Assembly (NCBI GenBank): GCA_043228905.1
Contig: JBHGNT010000016.1
Span: forward strand, 9,982,001 to 10,046,000
Reading direction: 5' to 3'
Source: Azolla caroliniana
Taxonomy: Eukaryota > Plantae > Polypodiophyta
DNA length: 64,000 nt
Every line of letters begins with the position of its first letter. Positions within the stretch are counted from its first letter, which is position 1. Below are positions 6,451 through 40,730 of this stretch, piece after piece. Made by a program: the position numbers and the translations under genes. Below the pieces are notes generated by a model, which was not told the DNA's origin, searched no databases, and worked only from the letters and a program-made list of their open reading frames with translations.

Positions 6451-8585
6451 TTGTGGGGAATTTCGGCTACTAGGAGAAAAGGAGTCGAAGAGCACGGGAA
6501 CAGGGGTGTGCACGGATGCACACAAAGCTGTCTTTATGAATAAACATATGTAAATAAAATAGGACTAGTAAGTACTGGGGATTAGGATTTTAATAGGTAC
6601 TTTAATGTCCCACGAAAGAGAAGAATAAAGCATGTGGGGGAAAGAAACTGAGGGAGAAGATGAGTGTGAGAGAACTAGCAGAGGTGATGACGGTGGCCGT
6701 CGACCATATAGTAAATGCACGGGAGAGCGTAGGTGGCCTCGATAGGGCCATAGAGATGATAGTCGACACTATAGGTCGATTTAATGGGAAGGATGTGACA
6801 AGCTATTTGGAGGCCTACTGGGATGAAATGATAAGAGGGACATCCGGTGGATAGACGGTTGTTTGGATTCCCGCGGGTAGTAACGCCGAGCACCCACATG
6901 GAGGTGCTCAAGATTGAAGCCGGCTGTCAGAATTTTTCAGCGTTCGAGGGACGACTCCTCGAGAGGTATGGTTTCAATGACTCGCTCCGGCTTCTGAAAT
7001 GGGAGTTCATGGAGTGGGTCGAGAGCCCTGGAAAGGTGAGGAATACATCAGTGCTCCTCTAGGAGTTCAAAAAAAGATTTGCTCGACTCTCGGCACTGGA
7101 CCAGATCGTGCTTGATACGAGCAGGGTCCTACTATTTATCAAGTCGGTAGACACGATTGATCGGGAGAAGGTAGGTCTCCTCTTGGAGATGGATAAAGGT
7201 CCCACGACCAACTGGTCTGTTGTCAAAAGAGTATGTCGCCGTTTCGACAAGCAGTGGGAGTGGAACGATGAGGAGGGAAGGAGGCGGCCAATCACGTGAT
7301 CGGCGCGCACTGAACGACCAGAGGTGCATATGGTGCGATGCCGTTGGTCAAATGCGGAGAGAGTGCACTGATTTCGCCGAAGCAGTCAAGAACAATGATG
7401 TGTACCTTTGGAATGGATAGGTTCACGCATGCGACACGTCAAGGCCCCTCGAGGTGAACACCGGACGAGGCAACATGAAGAGGATAAGGGAGGAAGTTGT
7501 GGCCTAGAATGTCGAGGCCATTCACTACTCGGTGTTGGCAGGTATTCGGCTAGGTGGAGTGAAGGGCGTCGGATCTGGTAGCAATACCGGAATCTAGCTG
7601 CGTGCTAGAGGGCCTATCCGGGGTAAGGCTAAGGAACGAAGAGGTAGACCATGTGGAGAGGCCGGTCCAAGAAAGCACCGGATGGAACGATCAGGTAGAA
7701 GAGAAAACCGGCTTTATGGAAGCCCGTGCCAGAACTACAAGGTTCTGGTAGAGGATAAGCGGGCCTGAAAGGCTAGAGGGGCTAGTCCCTCAAACCGGTA
7801 TGAGACCCGGACTGGGCCAAAGAAGAATGACGGAGGCCCAACCAGCTCATAGGAGAAGACGAAGTTGCCGTGCTTCCGGTTGAGCTCAGAGGTAGAGAGA
7901 GTGATCAACTTGGGAAAGGTCTTGGAGGAACCAATCCTTAACAATTGGGCGGAACTCAACCTGAGGGAGGTGCTTGGGATAACAAAGAAGGAGTTCCACG
8001 ATTCTATCATCGACCTAATGAAGAGAAAATGGCTCTCATCGGAGCTGGAGCCGGAGAAGTAGGTTGAATTGAAGGTGGCCCACATTGAAGATGTGACGAT
8101 GGAAGAAGAGTTTCTAGATAGTCTGTTCATGAAGCTGCACTGGGCGAGAGTGACAACGGAGACCCTGGTCTCGATCGGGGATGTGAAGGAGCCGGTAGTA
8201 GCGCTGATTGACCACGGATCAGAAATAAACCTAATGTCGATGGACTTCTATAAGAAGGGTAAGTGGCTGATCAACACCAAGCACGAGTGGAAGATATGCA
8301 TGGTGACTTGTGTCACGAAAGAGGTTAACGGGGCGTGCCCGAATGTCCGTGTGAAGGTCGGTGCTATCGAGATTCCCAACACTTCTTTGTGTAGGAGACA
8401 TCCTCCCATCCGATCATCCTCGGCGAGCCATACATCACAGTGGCTCGGATGGAGACAAAGGTGTTGGACAACGGTTCAGCCTATGCAAGGGTGAAGAATT
8501 ATGAGGGCCGACACATAGTCCAATTTTTGACGGTTCGACCGAACCACGAGCAGAATAGGGATTCTCTACGTGGTGAAGGTGGAGA

Positions 8586-29451: not shown

Positions 29452-30591
29452 ATGATCTATGAGACTAACCCACGCCTTTTACGACTATGCTTTTGGAATT
29501 GCAATGGATACCCATGGAATGCGAGATTTGGCATAGAGGAGTTCACCGATGACTCGGATATTACACTTCTTGTTGAAACATGGGAGCATGATACTCAAAG
29601 GATTCAAGGTTTAGGAAACTATAATGTACACTCTTTGATATGGAAGAAAAATCCAAGACAAAGAAGAGGACAAGGAGGGGTGCATTTTTTATTAAGAAGG
29701 AAATAGAGAAATATGTGTCAATCATAAAAAATGATGAAAATAAATGCTACATATGGATCAAAATAGAAACACCTAATGATTTGCCCACTTTTGTAGTTGG
29801 ATGTTACATTCCTCATCAAGGTTCTAACTTTTATGCTTGTTTGGATAAAGATCAACCGTTTGCCAATCTACAAGATGATATTGCTTATTTCAAATCCAAA
29901 GGGCAAGTTATTGTCTTTGGTGATATGAATGCTCGTACAAGAAGTTTCCAACTTGATTCACAAGAATCTTTCATGCCACATATCTCAAGGATGCAAGAGG
30001 ATATGCAAATGTATAACCGCTCTTCTAACGATACAAAAGATCCGGAGGAATTTGGGAAGTTACTCCTACAAATGTGCAATAGTACCGGATTGCTTATTGC
30101 AAATGGTATTTCCTTATGGCCCAACACTAATGGTTTTACATGTAGAAAACACAACGGAAATAGTGTGATTGACTATGTGCTACTTTCCGAAAGTATTTTG
30201 GATCGTATACCTAAATTCTCACTTGGTGAATGGACACCGGAATCTGATCATAGGCCTTTATGTATTGATCTCAAATGTATGCATAAGTTTGATTGTGAGA
30301 AGGCTATTGAAGATAATAAACAACTGCACTTGAGCATGAACCTTAAGTGAGCACCCATGTATTCCAAGATGGTTGAGGATATGTTACAAATGACAAAGAT
30401 ACAACATGGTGCCACACTAGAATGCAAATGGGAAGCTTTCAAGAAAGTCATTCTCTCATGTACAAACAAATGTTTTTCGACCAACCGCATATCTTGGAAA
30501 TGCACCAAGAAACTTAGGAAAAAATGGTTTGATAAAGAATGTCGTGAAGCTCGAAAGTGCCTTATGGTTTTGGATGTAGTTAAGGATAAAA
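29452..30591 (+). pseudogene. LINE-B ORF2 N-terminus (AP endonuclease)
   Basis: WNCNG, LVETW, GQGG, GDMNAR, SVIDYVL, SDHRPL, KWFDKEC. One frameshift and one stop. Confidence 0.9.
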
Positions 30592-31114
30592 GCATGCGAG
30601 TGGAAACACTATTATAGCTAATTAGCTACTAAAATGGCCATAGCTAATTAGCTATTTGTTTAGCTAGTCTTTTTTGTGGGAAAATCAAATATTTGAAAAA
30701 CTAATTTATGAAAAAACTCAAATATTTGAACTTCTGTTTCAGACGTAGTGGAACTTGGGGAATAACACCATCATCTAAGGTCGACTTCAATGTCATCAAT
30801 TGCCTGTTTAGCCTAAGTTTGATTTTGAACGTAGATGTAGCTCCTGCAACAGTAGAAAATCGACATTGCAGATTGAGAGCTACAACACCGAACCCGCTCG
30901 ATCATCGTCTAGGTATGTTTCAGTTACAAAAACCCCAAACATTTGTTTTTTCTTTTTGACTACTGTCTGAACTTTGGTGCCGATTCATATTTCCCCAAAA
31001 TCAAATAGGGCGAAGTCCTTGGAGTCCCATACAAGGATGTCTCGCAGATCAGGGAGTAGCAGCAGGTGTGTTTATATTACTTTTTTTGTGTTTAATCCTG
31101 TCTTTAGTGATAAT

Positions 31115-31620
31115 TGGGGTTTTTGATTACGGTTTTTGTTTATAAATTTCTTATTAGAATTTTTTATTAGGGTTTGTGATTGAAATTTCTGATTAGGGTT
31201 TTTGATTGAAATTTCTGATTAGGGTTTTTTATTATAAATTTCTGATTAGAATTTCTGAATAGGGTTTCTGGTTACAAATTTTGATTACAGATTAGAATTT
31301 CTGATTAGAATTTCTGAATAGGGTTTTTGTTTATAAATTTCTGTTTAGAATTTTTTATTAGGGTTTGTGATTGAAATTTTTGATTAGGGTTTCTGATTGA
31401 AATTTCTGATTAGGGTTTTTGATTATAAATTTTTGATTAGAATTTCTGAATAGGGTTTCTGGTTACAAACTTCTGATTACAAATTTTGATTAGGGTTTCT
31501 GATTTCAAACTTTTGATTACAGATTTTGATTAGGGTTTTTGATTTCAAATTTCTGAATACAAATTATGATTAGGGCTTCTAATTTGTTAAGTTAAAGATT
31601 TTGCACTATTTCTGATTTCT
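31115..31620. repeat. Intronic degenerate array of 11-13-bp units rich in TTAGGGTTT (telo-box)
   Basis: Alternating gattagggttt / gattgaaatttc / gattagaatttc units inside intron 31066-31635. Confidence 0.85.
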
Positions 31621-32973
31621 GAAATTATATTTCAGGTGGTTCGTTCCTCCGTATCCGAGAGTGCTAAACTTTGCAAAATTTTGTGAGACAAAGGAGGACT
31701 TCCACAACACCTATGGTCTGTCACTCGAGGGTGTTGACCCTACTGTCCTAAGTGATAAATTGATCAGTGATGTAGACTGGATGACAGTATATACAGTGCC
31801 TAGAGTCAAAGGCAAGGTCAAGTTGAAGCATGTACGAGCTGACTTGTACGATGACTGCATGAGGCTGCACCAGAAAGTTCATCAGGAGATCCTAGTCAAC
31901 AATGAGTTGTCAGTTTCATTTGCTAGAGCATTTGCATATGAGTACTGCAAAACAACGAAGGAATCCAGAGAGCCTGAAATGTATAGGGTAGCTTGGGCAG
32001 TCTATGGTGAGGCATCGGTAAAAAGATGCCGAAAGATGGGAACCTTGGCAAAAAAAAAAGACAGATTTTGGAGCATGGCAGCTGTTGATGCAACTGCCGA
32101 CTCCCAACAAAACCAGGGGCATACACCAAACCGACACCCAAGGAAAGCCAATGTCGATGATACAGGTGAGACATTGGTTAGTTATATGCTAAAAAATGTC
32201 CATGAAGCCTGTGAGACATTGGCATTTTTTAAGACTGATTTAGAGAAAGCCACAATGGCTTCTGCAATGGAGAGCAAAGTTACTTCCGTTGTTACAACGA
32301 TTAGAAATAAGATTCAGGTAACTATTGTTTTGCTGGTATGTGATTGTGTTATAAATAACTTTAAGGGTAAAATGTGCTAATCAAGAATTATCTGGAATAG
32401 GTTGCGCAACAGGATCTTGAATTAGAGGGGACATTGGATCCCCAGCGTAAAATACAACTGCAAATAGAGATCTAGGTTCTTTCAATGAACTTGGACCTTC
32501 TAGGTGTAAATACTGTTGCAGATTACAATTTGGAAAAGCTTCAAGTAAGTTAACGATTCCTAAGCAAAGTTGGTGTATCTTTCTCAGACAGGAATAATTA
32601 ATCGGTAAATTTCTCTGTTGCTTGAAGGAACAATAGATTCATCAAGAACAGGTAGTTAGTTGCCTTAAGAAGCAGCTACATTTTGTGGAGGGAATGGTAA
32701 GGACCAGACAAGATTTGGACTTGAACATTCTTGCTCCCTTACCAAATGAAGGAGAACCAGAAAATGATTTATTGACAGTTCAAGCACGTTGCATTGCTTG
32801 CGGGTTAGGTGTGGAGGACAAAACTGTGTCTTTGTTGGTTCACCTACAACCATGCAACCACACATACCATCTGCTTTGTTTTCAACATGCCTGTTGAATT
32901 GCTGCATTCTGTTTGGGAGATTGCAATACAACTCTACCAAATGACTGGAGAAAACTAACAGGTATACCATACT

Positions 32974-34014
32974 GTAGCTAATAAGCTTAGTCTTTTCTAA
33001 TTAGCTAAGCCGTAAAAAGTATGGAAACTATTTTGCTGCTATCGTTGTAGCTAATTAGCTACTACCATAGTTGATTAAAGCAGCTAATAGCTATCCTTTT
33101 AGCTAATTAGCTACTGCCATAGTTTACTACATTAGTTAATTAGCTAAGTGGCAGCTAGTTAGCTACTAGCTAATTAGCTATCCTACTGACATCTAATTAG
33201 CTACTGGTAGCTAGTTAGCTACTCATAGCTAATTAGCTAGTACCATAGTTGTGTAAAGTAGCTAATTAGCTATCCTACTAGCTAATTAGCTACTGGCAGC
33301 TAATGAGCTACTAGCTAATTAGCAATCCTAGTAGCTAATTAGCTATGATACTAGCTAATTCGCTAGTGCCATAGTTGTGTAAAAAAGCTAATTAGGTATC
33401 CTACTAGCTAATTAGCTACTGGCAACTAATTAGTTATCCTAGTAGCTAATCAGCTATCCTATTAGCTAATTAGCTATCCTACTAGCTAATTAGTTACTGC
33501 CATAGTTGTGTAAAGTAGCTAATAAGCTATCCTAGTAGCTAATTACCTATCCTACTAGCTAATTAGTTACTGCCATAGTTGTGTAAAGTAGCTAATAAGC
33601 TATCCTAGTAGCTAATTAGCTATTGGCAGCTAATTAGCTATCCTAGTAGCTAATAAGCTATCCTAGCTACTACATAGTTGAGAAAGTAGCTCATTAGCTA
33701 TCATTGTAGCTAATTAGCTATCCTACTAGCTAATTAGCTACTGCCATAGTTGTGTAAAGTAGCTAATAAGCTATCCTAGTAGCTAATTAGCTACTGGCAG
33801 CTAATTAGCTATCCTACTAGCTAATTAGCTATTGCCATAGTTGTGTAAAGTAGCTAATAAGCTATCCTAGCTACTACCATAGTTGAGTAAAGTAGCTAAT
33901 TAGCTATCGTACTAGCTAATTAGCTATCCTAATTAGCTATCGTACTAGCTAATTAGCTATCCTAGCTTCTACCATAGTTTAGTAAAGTAGCTAATTAGCT
34001 ATCCTAAATAGCTG
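32974..34014. repeat. Intronic array of palindromic TAGCTAATTAGCTA motifs
   Basis: Dozens of copies with atcctac/actgccatagttgtgtaaag spacers, inside intron 32962-34028. Confidence 0.95.
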
Positions 34015-36212
34015 CCATGTTATTGTAGAATCTTGTGGATTAAGGACGGCACATGATGTGTCTGGTGCTGATGACGCTGCAATAGATGAGGATACTGCTG
34101 CCAACGTGGCTGAAAGTAAGAGTCCTGCTATCACATCTCCTTCAGATCAGCTCCACCCTATTCTTTTGAAACAGTGTACTGAATTAGGCAACGATGTGAA
34201 ATGCCATGAAATAGTGGAAACAAGTAAAATTGAGTTCACCACAACAATGTTTATGAACACTTGATGCAACATTTCTTTGAATCTCAAGACCTTGATTCCA
34301 ACCCACCGAGCCCAACTACTGAAAATGTCCAAACAGATCCCTCTGTACTTCAAAAGCTAGTTCAAGAAATGACTGATGTGCAATTAGCTGCTGAGGCGAT
34401 GGGAAGGTTGTCGGAGGAGGACACACTTGCACATTGGGTGAAAGAAGCAAGGCTAAATGGAGAACCGACCAGAAAAAGGCTGAAGAACGGGCCACGATCG
34501 GGAACAAGACCAATTACTCGGTCAAGGGGCCCAGACGTAGTGGAGCAAAATACTGTTTAGTTGGATATGATTGTTAGCTTAGGGATTTTGCTAGGGTTTT
34601 ATGAAGTTTTACTATCCTGTTGGACAAGTAAAACCTCATATTGGTTGTTGCTTGATCCACATTATGTAATGGAACTCTATGATGTTTTTCCAAGATAATT
34701 TGAAGAGTGTTGTTCTATGACTGAAACTCTTTGGTGTTCAGGATGTTGTTTTGTGAGTCTGTTAGTTACTTTGTGAGTGTGAATATGTTGGTGTTTTCTG
34801 ATGTTGCAGAGTCTAAAGGGTTTGATTCTATTGCTCGTAAGGCCAATGGCAGTGTGGATACTGTTGATGTTGCAACGTGTTTAAAGGGCCCCATCTTGAA
34901 AGTAGATGTAGCAATTGACACAAGTGATCTGGTCACACAAGTTGATGAAGCATGTTGCACGGATGACTTGGTGTTGCGGGTAGATGTAGCATGTGATACT
35001 AGTGGACTGATATCGAGCAGATCAATAGCTACATGCACTGAGGTAATCCAAGGATTGATAACTAAGTCGACAAAACAAGAGCACCAGAATGTGAAGCCAG
35101 GCCCAACACAGTCGACTAGGGGTTTGAAGAGGAAAGGGACGCCAGTTGTGTTGGCCGAACCTGAGCTGATTGAGATTGATCGTGTCCTACTAGAAAATGG
35201 TGTAACAGCGGCTCAGTTTCAGGAATGGAAACCTAAACCACTAGAAGTCGAAAGAAGAGCCTTGATCTTGGAGCTTGATAAAGTCTTGATGAGTGTGAGA
35301 TATATGCAGCCAAGGAGGGACGCGAATTAGTTTCTAGAGTGGGCTGTGCAATACTTTGATTTGTTTATTTGGAGTGAAAAACCAAAATCAGATGTGTGGA
35401 AGTGTTTAGCAAGATTCTTCCCAAAATGGCGAAGTCGTTTTAAAGGTCAATGGGCACGAGAAAATTGTGAGCAAATGGAAGCTGCAACATTCAAGAGACT
35501 TTCTAATTTTTGGGCTACTTGGCCTGAATATAATGCCGACAACACATTGATTTTAGATACAGAACATTTCCGGCACTACTTCAATATTCGGAGATGCTGT
35601 CTCATTCTACCCGAGGAAATGCATGAACGGTACCTAGTGCAAACAATGAGCTGCCAACTAGGTGCATGGTTGTGGACTCCATACCGAGCTCGATATGCAG
35701 ATAATATATGTAGACTCGTTCCACTGACTAGCAAGAGCTTAATTGTTTATAGGAGATTTGTAGACATTTCCAATGGTAATTTATAAATATGTAAAGAGAT
35801 GACATTATTCAATGAAGAATTTAATTACTTGTTCCCACTGTACTTATCTACTGTGTAATTTGAGGAATATGTTGCAGATTGTTGATTTCATGCTATTGAT
35901 GACTATTTAGCTATTGACAGCTAATTAACTACATTTGTACAGCTAATTAGCTACTGATGACTATTTCGCTATAACTTATAACTTAAAACTTAACAAAAAA
36001 GACATGATTTTATTGAGAAAGAAGCACAGAAAGCAGACTGTATACAAGAAATTGATTCTCAAACGAATTTATTTAATTGTTTTCGCGAAATACATGTTTG
36101 TTTTACAAGAGAACATGGTAATTGCTACTTGTAGCTACAAATTCCATGTCATACTATTGTAAATACATTCATACACATTAGCACCAACAATGTATAAACC
36201 TGAGCAGCTCTT

Positions 36213-39200
36213 CTATTCTGACATTGGGACGTTGATGCACCTGACCAAATGAGAGTACATGTACGCCGCTGGTTTGTCTTCTAGCAGCCTGCACACATAT
36301 TCGTAGTCATCTAGTTTTGCATAAAAAATGCCTTCGATGTAGAATGTCCCGGCAGATACAAAATTTCCCCATACATCTACAATATTCTGCCTTGCACATT
36401 GTTTACTAACCGTGCACTTCAATATATAGAAATCATCACCCTCTGAATTTCCTTCTTCAGCATTTACATCTAAGTTATCCCCAACGTTCAAGACATCACT
36501 CAAAGTATCTCCAAGTCCCTCATATGTGAAGTCAACATTCTGCCCTGTTTCTCCATCAACTGCTTCCTTATCATTCAAAGTGTGATGCTCCCAATTCTGA
36601 ATGTATGCTTTGTTTAGACAATATCTCCAATTTCCCTGCACACAATGGAAGCAAAAACAAGTCAATTCTCTAACCGCAATACAATGACCATCCAACCTGG
36701 AATAACCGCGAACAGCATGCAGAGATCGCAATTCGGGAATTCCTTGGCACTCCCAGGTCTTCTCCCTATTTACTTCATCTATCTTCACTTCCCAAAATTC
36801 ACGTTTGATATCTTGGACTTGTGAGGAATAAACACCTGTTGCACTCGTTGACATATTTGTTCTTAAAAATTCAACTACATGTGATGCACAATTCATGTGC
36901 ACACCATCTGTCTTTAGTTGTTCATGGGTAAGTGCCCGCTTTATAACAGCCCTTGCACCATCATGTTCACCTTTACCATGGCCAGACCCAAAAAAATTCC
37001 ATCTCATCTCCAAACTTGTTATAGCAGGATACCTCCCCACAAAATAAAATGGACGTCGAGCCTTGAATTGTGACGCAGCTCCGTCAGACTAGACCCAATG
37101 TTGAGTAAGCTCCAAACGTTGAGCTAATAACCACTGCCAATGTAACTTAAAACAATGTTGGACGAACAAGGTATCATGCTTCTTATCATCAGAAATAAAG
37201 AAATGAATTACTTTTTTAACATCACCTGAAACTCGAAAATATGTTATGTGCACAAAAATGGTTACCTGAACTGAACACCAATGCATAGATTGAATTTCAT
37301 TCTACTGCTTGAAAGTATAATTCTCTGCGAAATCTACTACTGAGACTACTACATCATCTGGGAAATCAGATATGCAAGTCTTAAACTGATGAGCCTGCCA
37401 TGAATAAATGAAGTTGTGTTTAATGAACTTTCGTAGAGATACTACAAACAGAGACACCAAATCCCTTGGTTTAAGCATCTTCCGAACTAGATCCTTTCTT
37501 TTACACACCTTTCCTTCAAAATTGGTGTTCACTGACTCAAATAACTTCACAGAGATCAATATTTCACTACTCAATTCATTTGGACACCACCTAAATCTAG
37601 TAGGGCCACAATCTTGACATAAACCCATGGCACATTTATGAATATGGAAGATAGGGTCAGTTTCTCTCGGACACAATATTGAATCTAATAAATAACTCAT
37701 GGAAGAGATAACGTGCTCAGATGATTTACACTCCTCTTGTGGGCTTGATCGACAGATTGGGCACCCACATGTGCAAACTGTATTAGTTAGGGATGCGTCA
37801 TGGTGACGTAGTAGATTAACAGAGTCCTTCAGAAAACCCATCTGTACATGGTAAATGCAACAACATGTGTATCAATCCTTTAAGCGTCTCACAAAGTGTG
37901 GCTTCAGAGACTCGAATGTTCGTAGTTGAACTTTGATATTTGGATGCATTCGTTTGAACCTAATAAATAAATCGACCTGCGTAATAAAGGGGAATTAGTT
38001 ATTCTCGTAACTAGCTAACTATCCTAGTAGCTAATTAGCTCTTCTAGTAGCTTATTAGCTATTCTAGTAGCTAATTAGCTATCATGGTAGCTAATTAGCT
38101 GTCCTAGTAGCTAATTAGATGTCCTAGTAGCTAATTACCTATCATGGTAGCTAATTAGCTATTCTAGTAGCTAATTAGCTACTCTAGTAGCTAATTAGCT
38201 GTCATGGTAGCTAATTAGATGTCCTAGTAGCTAATTAGCTTTCCGCTTTCCTAGTAACTAATTAACTATCATGGTAGCTAATTAGCTAGTCTAGTAGCTA
38301 ATTAGCTACATGGTGGCTAATTAGCTGTCCTAGTAGCTAATTAGCTATCATGGTGGCTAATTAGTTGTCCTAGTAGTTAATTAGCTATAATGGTAGCTAA
38401 TTAGCTTTCCTAGTAGCTAATTAGCTGGTAATAATGAAATTAGCTATCCTAGTAGCTAATTAGTTGTCGTGGTAGGTAGTTAGCTATTTGGTAGCTAATT
38501 ATCTGGTAGTAACTAAAATAGCTATTGAGAATAGCTAATTAGCTATCATGGTAGTAGCTATTGAGAGTAGCCAGTTACCTATGTAGTAGTTATCCTAGTA
38601 GCTAACTAAGGTAAATGTAACTGATAAGCTAATTAGCTTTTCTGCTAACTGAGCTAATTAACTTTCCGTGTAGAGTCAACAAATGTTGAGATAAATGTAA
38701 ATACCTGAGGTAAATCAAGAAGATGAATGGGATGCTCCTCATATTGATTTCTTCCAACACGTTTCCTGCATAAATCCTTTTTATTGGGTGAAACCCTACT
38801 CTCATTAGTCCAAAACATTGTGATTACATCCTTGATTTTTCAAATGTTATGGGTGTCATTGGCTTACATCTTGTAGTTAGCTTTAGTAGATTAGTTCCTT
38901 CACCCGAGGAAATTATATGGTTCATTGTATTGTACACTGTTTTTCTACTAACACCAATTACCTTAGATAGCTCACTGATGTTTATATCGTCAACATCACT
39001 ATTAAGTAACATCATTAGACTAGACCTTTTTAAGACAAGATCATCTTCTGACCTGCTCATGGATACGAAACTATTACGAAGATTATTTACTAAAACAGAT
39101 GATATGTTTGCATTAAGACCATCACAATCAACTAAGTCCTTTATCGATGGATCATTACATATTCCATAAAGTACTACCTTCTTTTCTTCATTGCTGATGT

Positions 39201-39456
39201 GCTTGGTTTGAACATGGAAATAGTCTACAACCTTTTTCTGTATGATGGTAGTCGCATTACTTACATTCTCAGCTAAACTATCCTTACCTTTACTGAGTGT
39301 GGCTTTCGTATCCTTCAACAATTGACGATGTTTCCTTTTTTTTTCTGCCCAATAGTTTCGTATGGCTTGTTGTGTCCTGATAGCATCATCCCTATCCTTA
39401 TGATCATTGAGGGGTAATTCTAAACACCCTTCTTCCCCTTCCATTTGGCTGGACAT
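36213..39456 (-). pseudogene. Spliced Sola2-like transposase, inactivated
   Basis: Exons 39456-38705 and 37976-36213. Motifs FESLKPHFV..TCCCIYH, CAMGLCQDC, VDFAENY..QSMHW..FISDDKKHD, SDGAASQFK, FFGSGHGKGEHDG, C-terminal CFCFHC. Three in-frame stops plus a frameshift near 38840. Confidence 0.85.
38010..38660. repeat. Second intronic TAGCTAATTAGCTA array (about 19-bp period)
   Basis: Units such as ctagtagctaattagctat/gtc, inside transposase intron 37977-38704. Confidence 0.95.
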
Positions 39457-39749
39457 ATTAAAACCCTAAATTTCTAGAAAAAAAACAAGTATTTAAGATG
39501 GCTATGGGCTACAACAATACACAAAAATTTTCCACAATACACAAGATTAGACACAACAATACACAAGATAATCAATAGACAAAAAAGTTATTGCAATCCA
39601 AGACCGAACAGTAGAGGAGTTCACTCCGTTGGATCGAACAGTTGAGGAGGCGATCCAGGACCTACCAATGGCGACAACTGAATGTAGAATGTTGTCGTTG
39701 GATGAGTGAACTCCGTCAAATCGAAATGTGGAAGCAATCCAGGATTGGA

Positions 39750-40022
39750 CAGTAGCGGCCCCTGAGTGTAGAGTGGCATAGAGAAGAGAACCCCGTCAGA
39801 TTGAACAACTCTTTGATGATGCTTGGAACGCACAATAGCAGCCCCTGAGTGTAGAGTGGCACAGAGAAGAGAACCCCGTCAGATTGAACAGCTCTTTGAT
39901 GATGCTTGGAACGCACAGTAGCGGCCCCTGAGTGTAGAGTGGCACAGAGAAGAGAACCCCGTCAGATTGAACAACTCTTTGATGATGCTTGGAAAGCATA
40001 GTAGCGGCCCTTGAGTGTAGAT
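39750..40022. repeat. Tandem array, about 3.3 x 83 bp, upstream of the transposase
   Basis: Unit cagtagcggcccctgagtgtagagtggca..agaaccccgtcagattgaaca..gatgatgcttggaacgca. Confidence 0.9.
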
Positions 40023-40730
40023 TGGCGGCAGGTGGACTCGATAGGGTTTAGCAACAGTGGTAGCAACTAACCCACAATACTCAACTAGAGATGGCCTACG
40101 TGATGTGGCAAAGGATCATGCATAATGGACCTAGGAATTTGATATATAATTTATGGTACACATTTATGGTGCACATATCAATTTATGTTGCACATTTATG
40201 GCACTTATTTACATATATAATTAAAACACTCTAGTATTTTCAATGGTAGTTTTTTGCATAGTTAATTTATTAATGATGGCTTTTTACTAAAATGACTATT
40301 TATCAATGGTAGCTTTTTGCATAGCTAATTAGCTATGTCAAGGACATAGCTAATTGTTTCCACTCGCATGCTTTCACCCAATTACCAAAAGCATTTGCAT
40401 GAGTATAAAAGTCTTATTCAAAGAAAGAGAAGAATATGGGTGTCATAACTAGACTCGAACCCATAACCTTTTGTTACACGGGTCGAGACTTTACCATTAG
40501 GTTATGAGTTGTAATTTGAAGGATATTATTTTCATTTAGGTTTTATTAGGAAATTGATGTATATTCCAGATTTCTCTGGAACATTCTAGAAACTTCAGGA
40601 GTATTCCTGAAGACACTATAAAAGGAGGCGCAAGGCATTAGTTCGAACCAAATCGGTTCAACGCCAGTCTTAAGCCTTCTAACTACTGTTGTATATCTTC
40701 CGTCATATAATACATATATCTTTCGCATCA

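Follow-up and report, generated by a model that had tools for sequence, protein, structure and literature searches.

Why should a transposon carry dozens of copies of one short palindrome in introns of both its genes? The question is raised by a 64,000-nucleotide stretch of contig JBHGNT010000016.1 of Azolla caroliniana (assembly GCA_043228905.1, positions 9,982,001 to 10,046,000; hereafter the window), which holds a Sola2-type DNA transposon with a transposase gene and a convergent accessory gene. An original prediction, made from the letters of the window, had proposed that the repeats are binding sites for an element-encoded protein, like the target motifs of VANC in VANDAL transposons, or else yield self-complementary intronic RNA and hairpin small RNAs. 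Our comparisons with sister copies, related families and another carrier of the motif indicate that some protein encoded by the element probably binds the palindrome. The features on which the argument turns are the following.

30584..40379, no strand: whole Sola2-type DNA transposon, 9,796 bp, a decayed copy inserted in a long interspersed nuclear element (LINE); ends set by sister copies
30584..30608, plus strand: left terminal inverted repeat (TIR), 25 bp, begins with G residues, 23 of 25 positions identical to the right TIR
30615..30654, no strand: two exact subterminal palindromes, starting at 30615 and 30641 (offsets 31 and 57 in all 19 two-ended copies)
31037..35786, plus strand: predicted accessory gene, convergent with the transposase gene and broken in the window copy; based on open reading frames (ORFs) and homologues, exon joins predicted
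32962..34028, plus strand: accessory intron after the RING exon, 40 palindrome units, period mostly 20, also 18, 33 and 42
35900..35953, no strand: imperfect palindrome cluster, two to three sites (35918, 35940) between the converging 3′ ends
36135..39456, minus strand: transposase gene, two exons (39456-38705 and 37976-36135), N-terminal helix-turn-helix (HTH)
37977..38704, minus strand: transposase intron, 24 palindrome units, period 20
40322..40352, no strand: exact subterminal palindrome and a half site (about 40347), abutting the right TIR
40355..40379, minus strand: right TIR, 25 bp, 23 of 25 positions identical to the left TIR

Palindrome sites in the element and its sister copies

The 14-bp palindrome found at 30615-30628 has 28 exact sites in the window, all within the element, and none was obtained in 100 shuffles. 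With up to two mismatches allowed, the element holds 69 sites and the 54 kb of the window outside it hold none. The 69 are distributed as two at the left end, 40 in the accessory intron, two in the 3′ gap, 24 in the transposase intron and one at the right end; 64 are therefore intronic, and the exact array units number 18 in the accessory intron and 7 in the transposase intron. Two parts of the original prediction were borne out by these counts, namely that the palindrome lies just inside both TIRs (exact sites at 30615, 30641 and 40322, next to the 25-bp repeats) and that arrays fill the two introns (40 and 24 units at the same threshold). Between the converging 3′ ends, where the original prediction had placed the perfect palindrome, there is indeed a cluster, but its sites are imperfect and none is exact. 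Both array introns have GT...AG borders, and the arrays come within 13 to 65 bp of the splice sites. Removal of the transposase intron from an intact sister gives 863 amino acids with no stop, an intron is missing at that point in 13 related loci, and in a related family (family B, below) it measures 96 to 99 bp. From this sequence comparison, both array introns are judged real.

A DNA search of the genome returned 807 candidates, 40 of which were scored; 20 of the 39 copies other than that in the window were taken, and 18 of them are two-ended. These 18 sisters and the window copy are the 19 two-ended copies referred to here. The TIRs begin with three G residues in 18 of 18 sisters, and a 4-bp target duplication is present in 18 of the 19 two-ended copies. 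The exception is the window copy, whose flanking tetranucleotides (30580-30583 and 40380-40383) differ, unlike those of the sisters. A Pfam match to a LINE endonuclease lies beside the element (29625-30347), and an empty-site test on the LINE left three of five joins open for the window copy. The sister copies ruled out other ends, which would have lain at an inward G-A-G and been flanked by a 6-bp duplication.

The definition of Sola2 includes short TIRs with G-R-G ends. Sola2 transposons make 4-bp target duplications (PMC3627910), and all the motif blocks of the published Sola2 alignment (PMC3627910, supplement 2) were matched by eye in the intact ORF. D215, D298 and D339 and an H-G-K-G motif are invariant in 42 transposase homologues, the named ones of which come from moss, liverwort, ferns, conifers and animals. 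The window copy itself is dead: a frameshift disrupts transposase exon 1, and exon 2 contains four premature stops. Genome-wide, we counted 447 left ends of the element with at most one mismatch. Over the main transposase exon, which is open in 12 of 19 sampled copies, likeness among the sisters is 99.6% (the median over 120 pairs of equal length) and the window copy is 97.6% identical to them. The family also includes a 297-bp miniature (locus L047, 4602-4898) that has kept the family TIRs, the 4-bp duplication and the subterminal motifs. Judged by these alignments, the element is young, abundant and of the cut-and-paste type, and its family is Sola2. Azolla is described as rich in Sola elements (PMC6786969). 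As reported from a survey of 1007 plant genomes, Ginger and Sola together make up 9 of 3203 active clusters, and clusters above 50 copies number only 30 (PMC12973397); roughly 450 young copies of one element are unusual against these figures.

The arrays, which might have been a peculiarity of one decayed copy, were found in the sisters. Of the 18 sisters, 17 yielded the array of the accessory intron (1031 to 2517 bp, 39 to 102 units; L003 lacks the landmark) and all yielded that of the transposase intron, with 1024 to 1798 bp and 35 to 70 units in the 17 that were tabulated. Elsewhere in the sisters, motif sites are confined to the ends and the 3′ gap. Among these near-identical copies, array copy number differs two- to three-fold. 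When units were anchored on the left half of the palindrome, the right half was kept in about 80 to 90% or more of them, and the flanks mostly in 30 to 80%. Each of the two introns has its own commonest spacers, and those of an older subfamily, whose transposase is 83 to 90% identical, are different again. The main array period is 20 bp, and across 12 arrays the distinct periods tend toward whole helical turns (P = 0.011), a weak result from non-independent arrays of which several are off phase. CG makes up 0.014 to 0.067 of C in the arrays versus about 0.10 to 0.12 elsewhere in the element, and the arrays are mostly poor in CHG as well, which may stem from selection or from decay. The 3′ cluster was not seen in five of the six older-subfamily loci in which the stretch was located (within 330 bp of the transposase end). 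Separately, the 3′ gap of sister copies such as L033 contains a tandem unit of 233 to 255 bp that includes two palindromes and varies in number.

Motifs of related families and of a Copia retrotransposon

A degenerate pattern search revealed a second lineage, family B, in the Azolla genome, and 80 metagenome loci were included in the comparison. Related families with 44 to 60% transposase identity to that of the window element (family A) repeat its layout with a motif of their own. Family B (about 46% transposase identity) has alike outer TIRs and 4-bp duplications and a different palindrome, which stands beside its TIRs and is arrayed in the same intron after the RING exon. In a relative of family B, the family C locus L071, the family B motif occurs at five places that match the family A layout: both ends, the transposase intron, the 3′ gap and the accessory side. 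Three further motifs fill the first transposase intron of the metagenome loci L102 (60% identity), L105 (44%) and L106 (46%) with arrays, and those of L102 and L106 are built on non-palindromic units. The L102 family itself was not found at close identity in the Azolla genome, where the best match reached 78%.

We then scored the ends of each family with 7-mers learned from its intron only, against 2000 shuffles of the end. Ends and arrays of the same family matched in four of five families (P = 0.0005 to 0.006); among the 20 off-diagonal combinations one matched, the L102 array on family A ends, and this came from a shared core. In every family the first family-specific site lies about 14 to 45 nt from the end, and the outermost 13 nt or so are alike among them; in family B, L105 and L115 the family-specific site reaches into the first 25 nt. 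The original prediction asked whether related families swap motif and accessory protein together. End and intron motifs do change together, and the motif stays constant while the accessory N-domain falls to 67 to 78% (family A versus older A) or 57% (B versus C) likeness. Across the A subfamilies with a constant motif, the transposases are 80 to 90% alike. In relatives that lack the intron (L125/L126 and L140-L142), palindromes cluster upstream of the transposase; downstream, no ORF of 180 amino acids was found on the opposite strand of their contigs of 4.7 to 7.2 kb, where introns could hide one. An automatic search for TIRs and target-site duplications in the 48 metagenome loci of at least 5 kb found none.

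Two side observations concern these comparisons. A short inverted repeat with a 3-nt center is kept across families near the transposase-side end (40332-40352 in the window; L102, 1818-1840; L105, 66-90), flanked by each family's own half site. The older A-type locus L093, a joined stretch, contains at 7382-8161 a piece 56% alike to the family B accessory N-domain, which may be a nested fragment or a chimera.

The genome contains 19,622 exact sites of the 14-mer, versus 11 of a reversed control. Among the first 79 listed, on contig C1, 74 lie in the family, its older subfamilies or the 297-bp miniature, five in the long terminal repeats (LTRs) of a Copia family, and none elsewhere. The claim that the motif does not occur outside the element is thus correct for the window and incorrect genome-wide; an array outside the family, which would count against binding sites of its own, does exist in these LTRs, yet it accounts for a minority of these 79 sites. 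The retrotransposon has the gag-integrase-reverse transcriptase order, an RVT_2 domain, two LTRs and a primer site, which make it Ty1/Copia, and its RNase H pattern has at least 204 matches. Its LTRs (L054-L058, L181-L200) carry the palindrome motif as an 18-bp tandem repeat. Five full elements of this set have 6 to 10 units in their LTRs and none in the inner region, and in four of the five the counts differ between the two LTRs of one element. Twenty further copies, picked to span four sequence variants, all contain 2 to 9 matches with up to three mismatches, and 19 contain at least one with up to two; the more divergent variants have mostly degenerate units. In 20 of 20 sampled copies, with 85 to 100% identity, the cluster stands directly before a TATA-like stretch, so that by its position the array likely sits in the LTR promoter. 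In the one case of a Copia element at 55% protein identity with the same LTR start (L204), no motif match was present; in L205 and L206, of the same Copia family, the LTR is interrupted. The 3′ cluster of the young transposon family aligns with a Copia LTR segment over 90 bp, beyond the motif, and is the best-scoring stretch in four of six LTR pieces, in one by a single point. Sequence exchange between the two, in either direction, is possible from this alignment. The motif is not exclusive to the transposon.

Candidate binders and competing explanations

If the palindromes are docking sites for a protein of the element, repeat slippage would multiply the site wherever no coding constraint prevents growth, and selection would keep the palindrome core. 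Dense sites would then load many protein dimers onto the element, and the loaded dimers would help it to stay transcribed and mobile against silencing. We consider the HTH region of the transposase the foremost candidate reader, with a chance that falls just short of even. The transposase is favored because the site is fixed at the TIR edge, because the miniature keeps the motif, because the motif is constant while the accessory domain diverges, and because palindromes cluster in the intron-less relatives; the accessory protein, a possible partner of the transposase, is favored by the intronic placement, as in VANC. The VANC-like proposal of the original prediction accordingly survives in its core, with arrays in the sisters, a kept palindrome core and motif swaps between families, and needs amending on two counts, since a location at the border of the TIR speaks for the transposase more than for the accessory protein, and since the element is a Sola2 transposon, not a Mutator-like element (MULE).

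Several observations weigh against docking sites read by the transposase. Motif-free tandem repeats are present in the same element, which is therefore slippage-prone anyway. L115 has no clear array and failed the own-end test, and many more distant loci lack a strongly repeated 9-mer, so that the array design is common but not universal. The five tested families are related, and their motif swaps are therefore non-independent events. The HTH_11 match at the transposase N terminus (E = 6.5e-5) is under the Pfam cut-off. Clustered motifs are reported to direct self-activation by TnpA and the AtMu1 transposase, which act at the termini (bioRxiv 10.64898/2026.08.24.746577), and arrays at internal, intronic positions characterize the accessory protein VANC (PMC5735166; bioRxiv 10.64898/2026.08.24.746577). 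Finally, the Copia LTR array is old and spread across subfamilies, which a host factor would explain equally.

The accessory protein might itself be the binder, its N-domain reading the palindrome as a coiled-coil dimer in VANC-like anti-silencing, with the RING and a degenerate C-terminal domain (CTD)-phosphatase-like domain as effectors. VANC binds tandem arrays that differ between families and lie in introns and intergenic parts (PMC5735166). The N-domain, for its part, is kept in 148 representatives, is modeled with confidence (predicted local distance difference test [pLDDT] score of 94), contains a basic stretch that varies between families and is followed by a coiled-coil-like segment. 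We nevertheless find this assignment doubtful, as the motif remains the same over the 57 to 78% range of N-domain likeness, hugs or enters the TIR, and forms clusters in relatives where no accessory ORF was seen. Recognition by a host transcription factor, through which the transposon and Copia alike would use the motif as an enhancer, would fit the Copia units directly before the TATA-like stretch in every sampled copy, and the AT-rich center of the palindrome presumably resembles homeodomain sites. Such a factor is unlikely, since the different motif of each Sola2 family at the same TIR-adjacent place would call for a new host factor each time, and none of the first 79 listed sites fell outside the two element types.

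Neutral minisatellites, arising when repair or slippage copied a subterminal motif into introns that tolerate growth, would account for the several motif-free tandem repeats and for the two- to three-fold variation among near-identical copies, and the motif may fold back in a way that favors slippage. They predict neither a preserved core among spacers that change from intron to intron and from subfamily to subfamily nor a joint change of end and intron motifs in four of five families, and the weak leaning of non-independent spacings to whole helical turns (P = 0.011) also speaks against them; we regard this origin, too, as improbable. Least credible of all, and by a wide distance, is that the introns give self-complementary RNA diced into hairpin small RNAs for self-regulation. 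Inverted pairs are many, with 70 to 77% complementarity, and the folding energy is slightly below that of spacer-shuffled controls (z = -2.3 and -2.7, 15 shuffles). However, no long near-perfect inverted stem is present, the longest unbroken stems measuring 22 and 18 bp. The folding energy does not reach half the value of a real inverted duplication, and a reverse-complement partner exists for just 2 of 1176 and 48 of 857 non-palindromic spacers. The arrays run as direct repeats with a polarity, and those of L102 and L106 rest on non-palindromic units, so that this part of the original prediction is not supported. Tandem repeats can give small interfering RNA without hairpins (PMC10398659).

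The accessory gene and known systems

The accessory gene and the motif-free repeats of the window copy are laid out as follows.

31113..31584, no strand: second tandem array, 13/26-bp unit, no palindrome, in the first accessory intron
31637..32101: accessory N-domain, unnamed, followed by a coiled coil and a RING-like exon that ends at 32961
34029..34560, plus strand: accessory acidic exon
34810..35786: accessory NIF-like exon, plus strand
39749..40026, no strand: 83-bp tandem repeat upstream of the transposase, no palindrome

The array at 31113-31584 has what we take to be a telomere-like look. Pfam gave NIF above the cut-off and a weak RING match on the accessory exons and nothing else, and homologues join the N-domain, RING and NIF in single proteins. 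The single donor after the RING exon (32961) is in frame with both the acidic exon (34029) and the NIF-like exon (34810), so that alternative last exons, an acidic tail or a NIF-like domain, are possible directly after the array intron. The NIF-like domain lacks, at 35260-35290 of the window, what we take to be the canonical aspartate motif of CTD phosphatases, and because of this it is likely a pseudo-phosphatase. No NIF exon was seen in family B. The N-domain model had no Foldseek match at E ≤ 0.001 (best Z of 2.5 among 48,161 chains), Atlas matches were all below 0.9, and PDB sequence matches were to coiled coils only; such an absence of matches is no demonstration of a new fold. The model of the transposase N terminus is poor (pLDDT of 50), and a PDB sequence search with it gave weak matches only, with E of 0.04 or worse. 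Four predicted proteins (P0199, P0279, P0263 and P0202) combine the accessory N-domain with retrotransposon gag-like parts, which may be gene-prediction fusions or reflect use of the N-domain by LTR elements.

The closest parallel is VANDAL/VANC, described as having a short family-specific motif in unstable tandem repeats of introns and of intergenic and terminal non-coding parts, together with an accessory gene (PMC5735166, PMC10398659). There the unrelated AT9TSD1 is reported to carry VANC6 motifs (PMC5735166); here the sharer is an LTR retrotransposon. VANDALs are MULEs with degenerate TIRs (PMC10398659), whereas the Azolla element is a Sola2 transposon with intact TIRs, a 4-bp duplication and a motif at the TIR edge. 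It further differs in its palindromic motif and in an accessory protein with RING and NIF-like parts. The accessory protein had no family match in Pfam, PDB-sequence and fold comparisons, among which a direct comparison with VANC protein was not included. Spm TnpA and AtMu1 share with the element clustered family-specific end motifs that are kept in non-autonomous derivatives and a transposase as candidate regulator (bioRxiv 10.64898/2026.08.24.746577); their sites and effect are described as terminal, whereas most sites here are internal. The word Sola was not found in the text of that preprint.

Within Sola2, the element shares the transposase motif blocks, short TIRs and the 4-bp duplication of the superfamily, for which Fanzor is a known passenger gene (PMC3627910, PMC4455052). 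Unlike the Sola2 elements described there, it has a transposase split by an array-filled intron and a convergent gene for N-domain, RING and NIF-like parts. Neither motif arrays nor this accessory gene were described for Sola2 in the literature consulted, although supplements and Repbase reports may hold one. Sola1-1_Ec32 of Ectocarpus likewise has an opposite-strand accessory gene, whose product is proposed to bind and modify its own element; that product combines ParB with a DNA methyltransferase (PMC12477816), and no such domain match was obtained here. The string "palindrom" was not found in the main text of PMC12477816.

By analogy, we infer that the element works like VANDAL/VANC and like the self-activation of TnpA and AtMu1, as a member of neither. 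A more far-reaching version, to which we give limited credence, would make it a third, independently evolved and sequence-specific anti-silencing system, belonging to Sola2 of non-flowering plants, in which the accessory protein possibly has a new fold and a Copia LTR, having acquired the site and amplifying it, is switched on by the regulator of the transposon, a form of cross-class parasitism. If docking on the palindrome is true, a VANC-style design would have arisen again in an unrelated transposon superfamily and outside flowering plants. A single genome would hold several pairs of motif and protein, open to clean swap tests, and the Copia LTR array would offer a direct test of whether one class of elements exploits the regulator of another.

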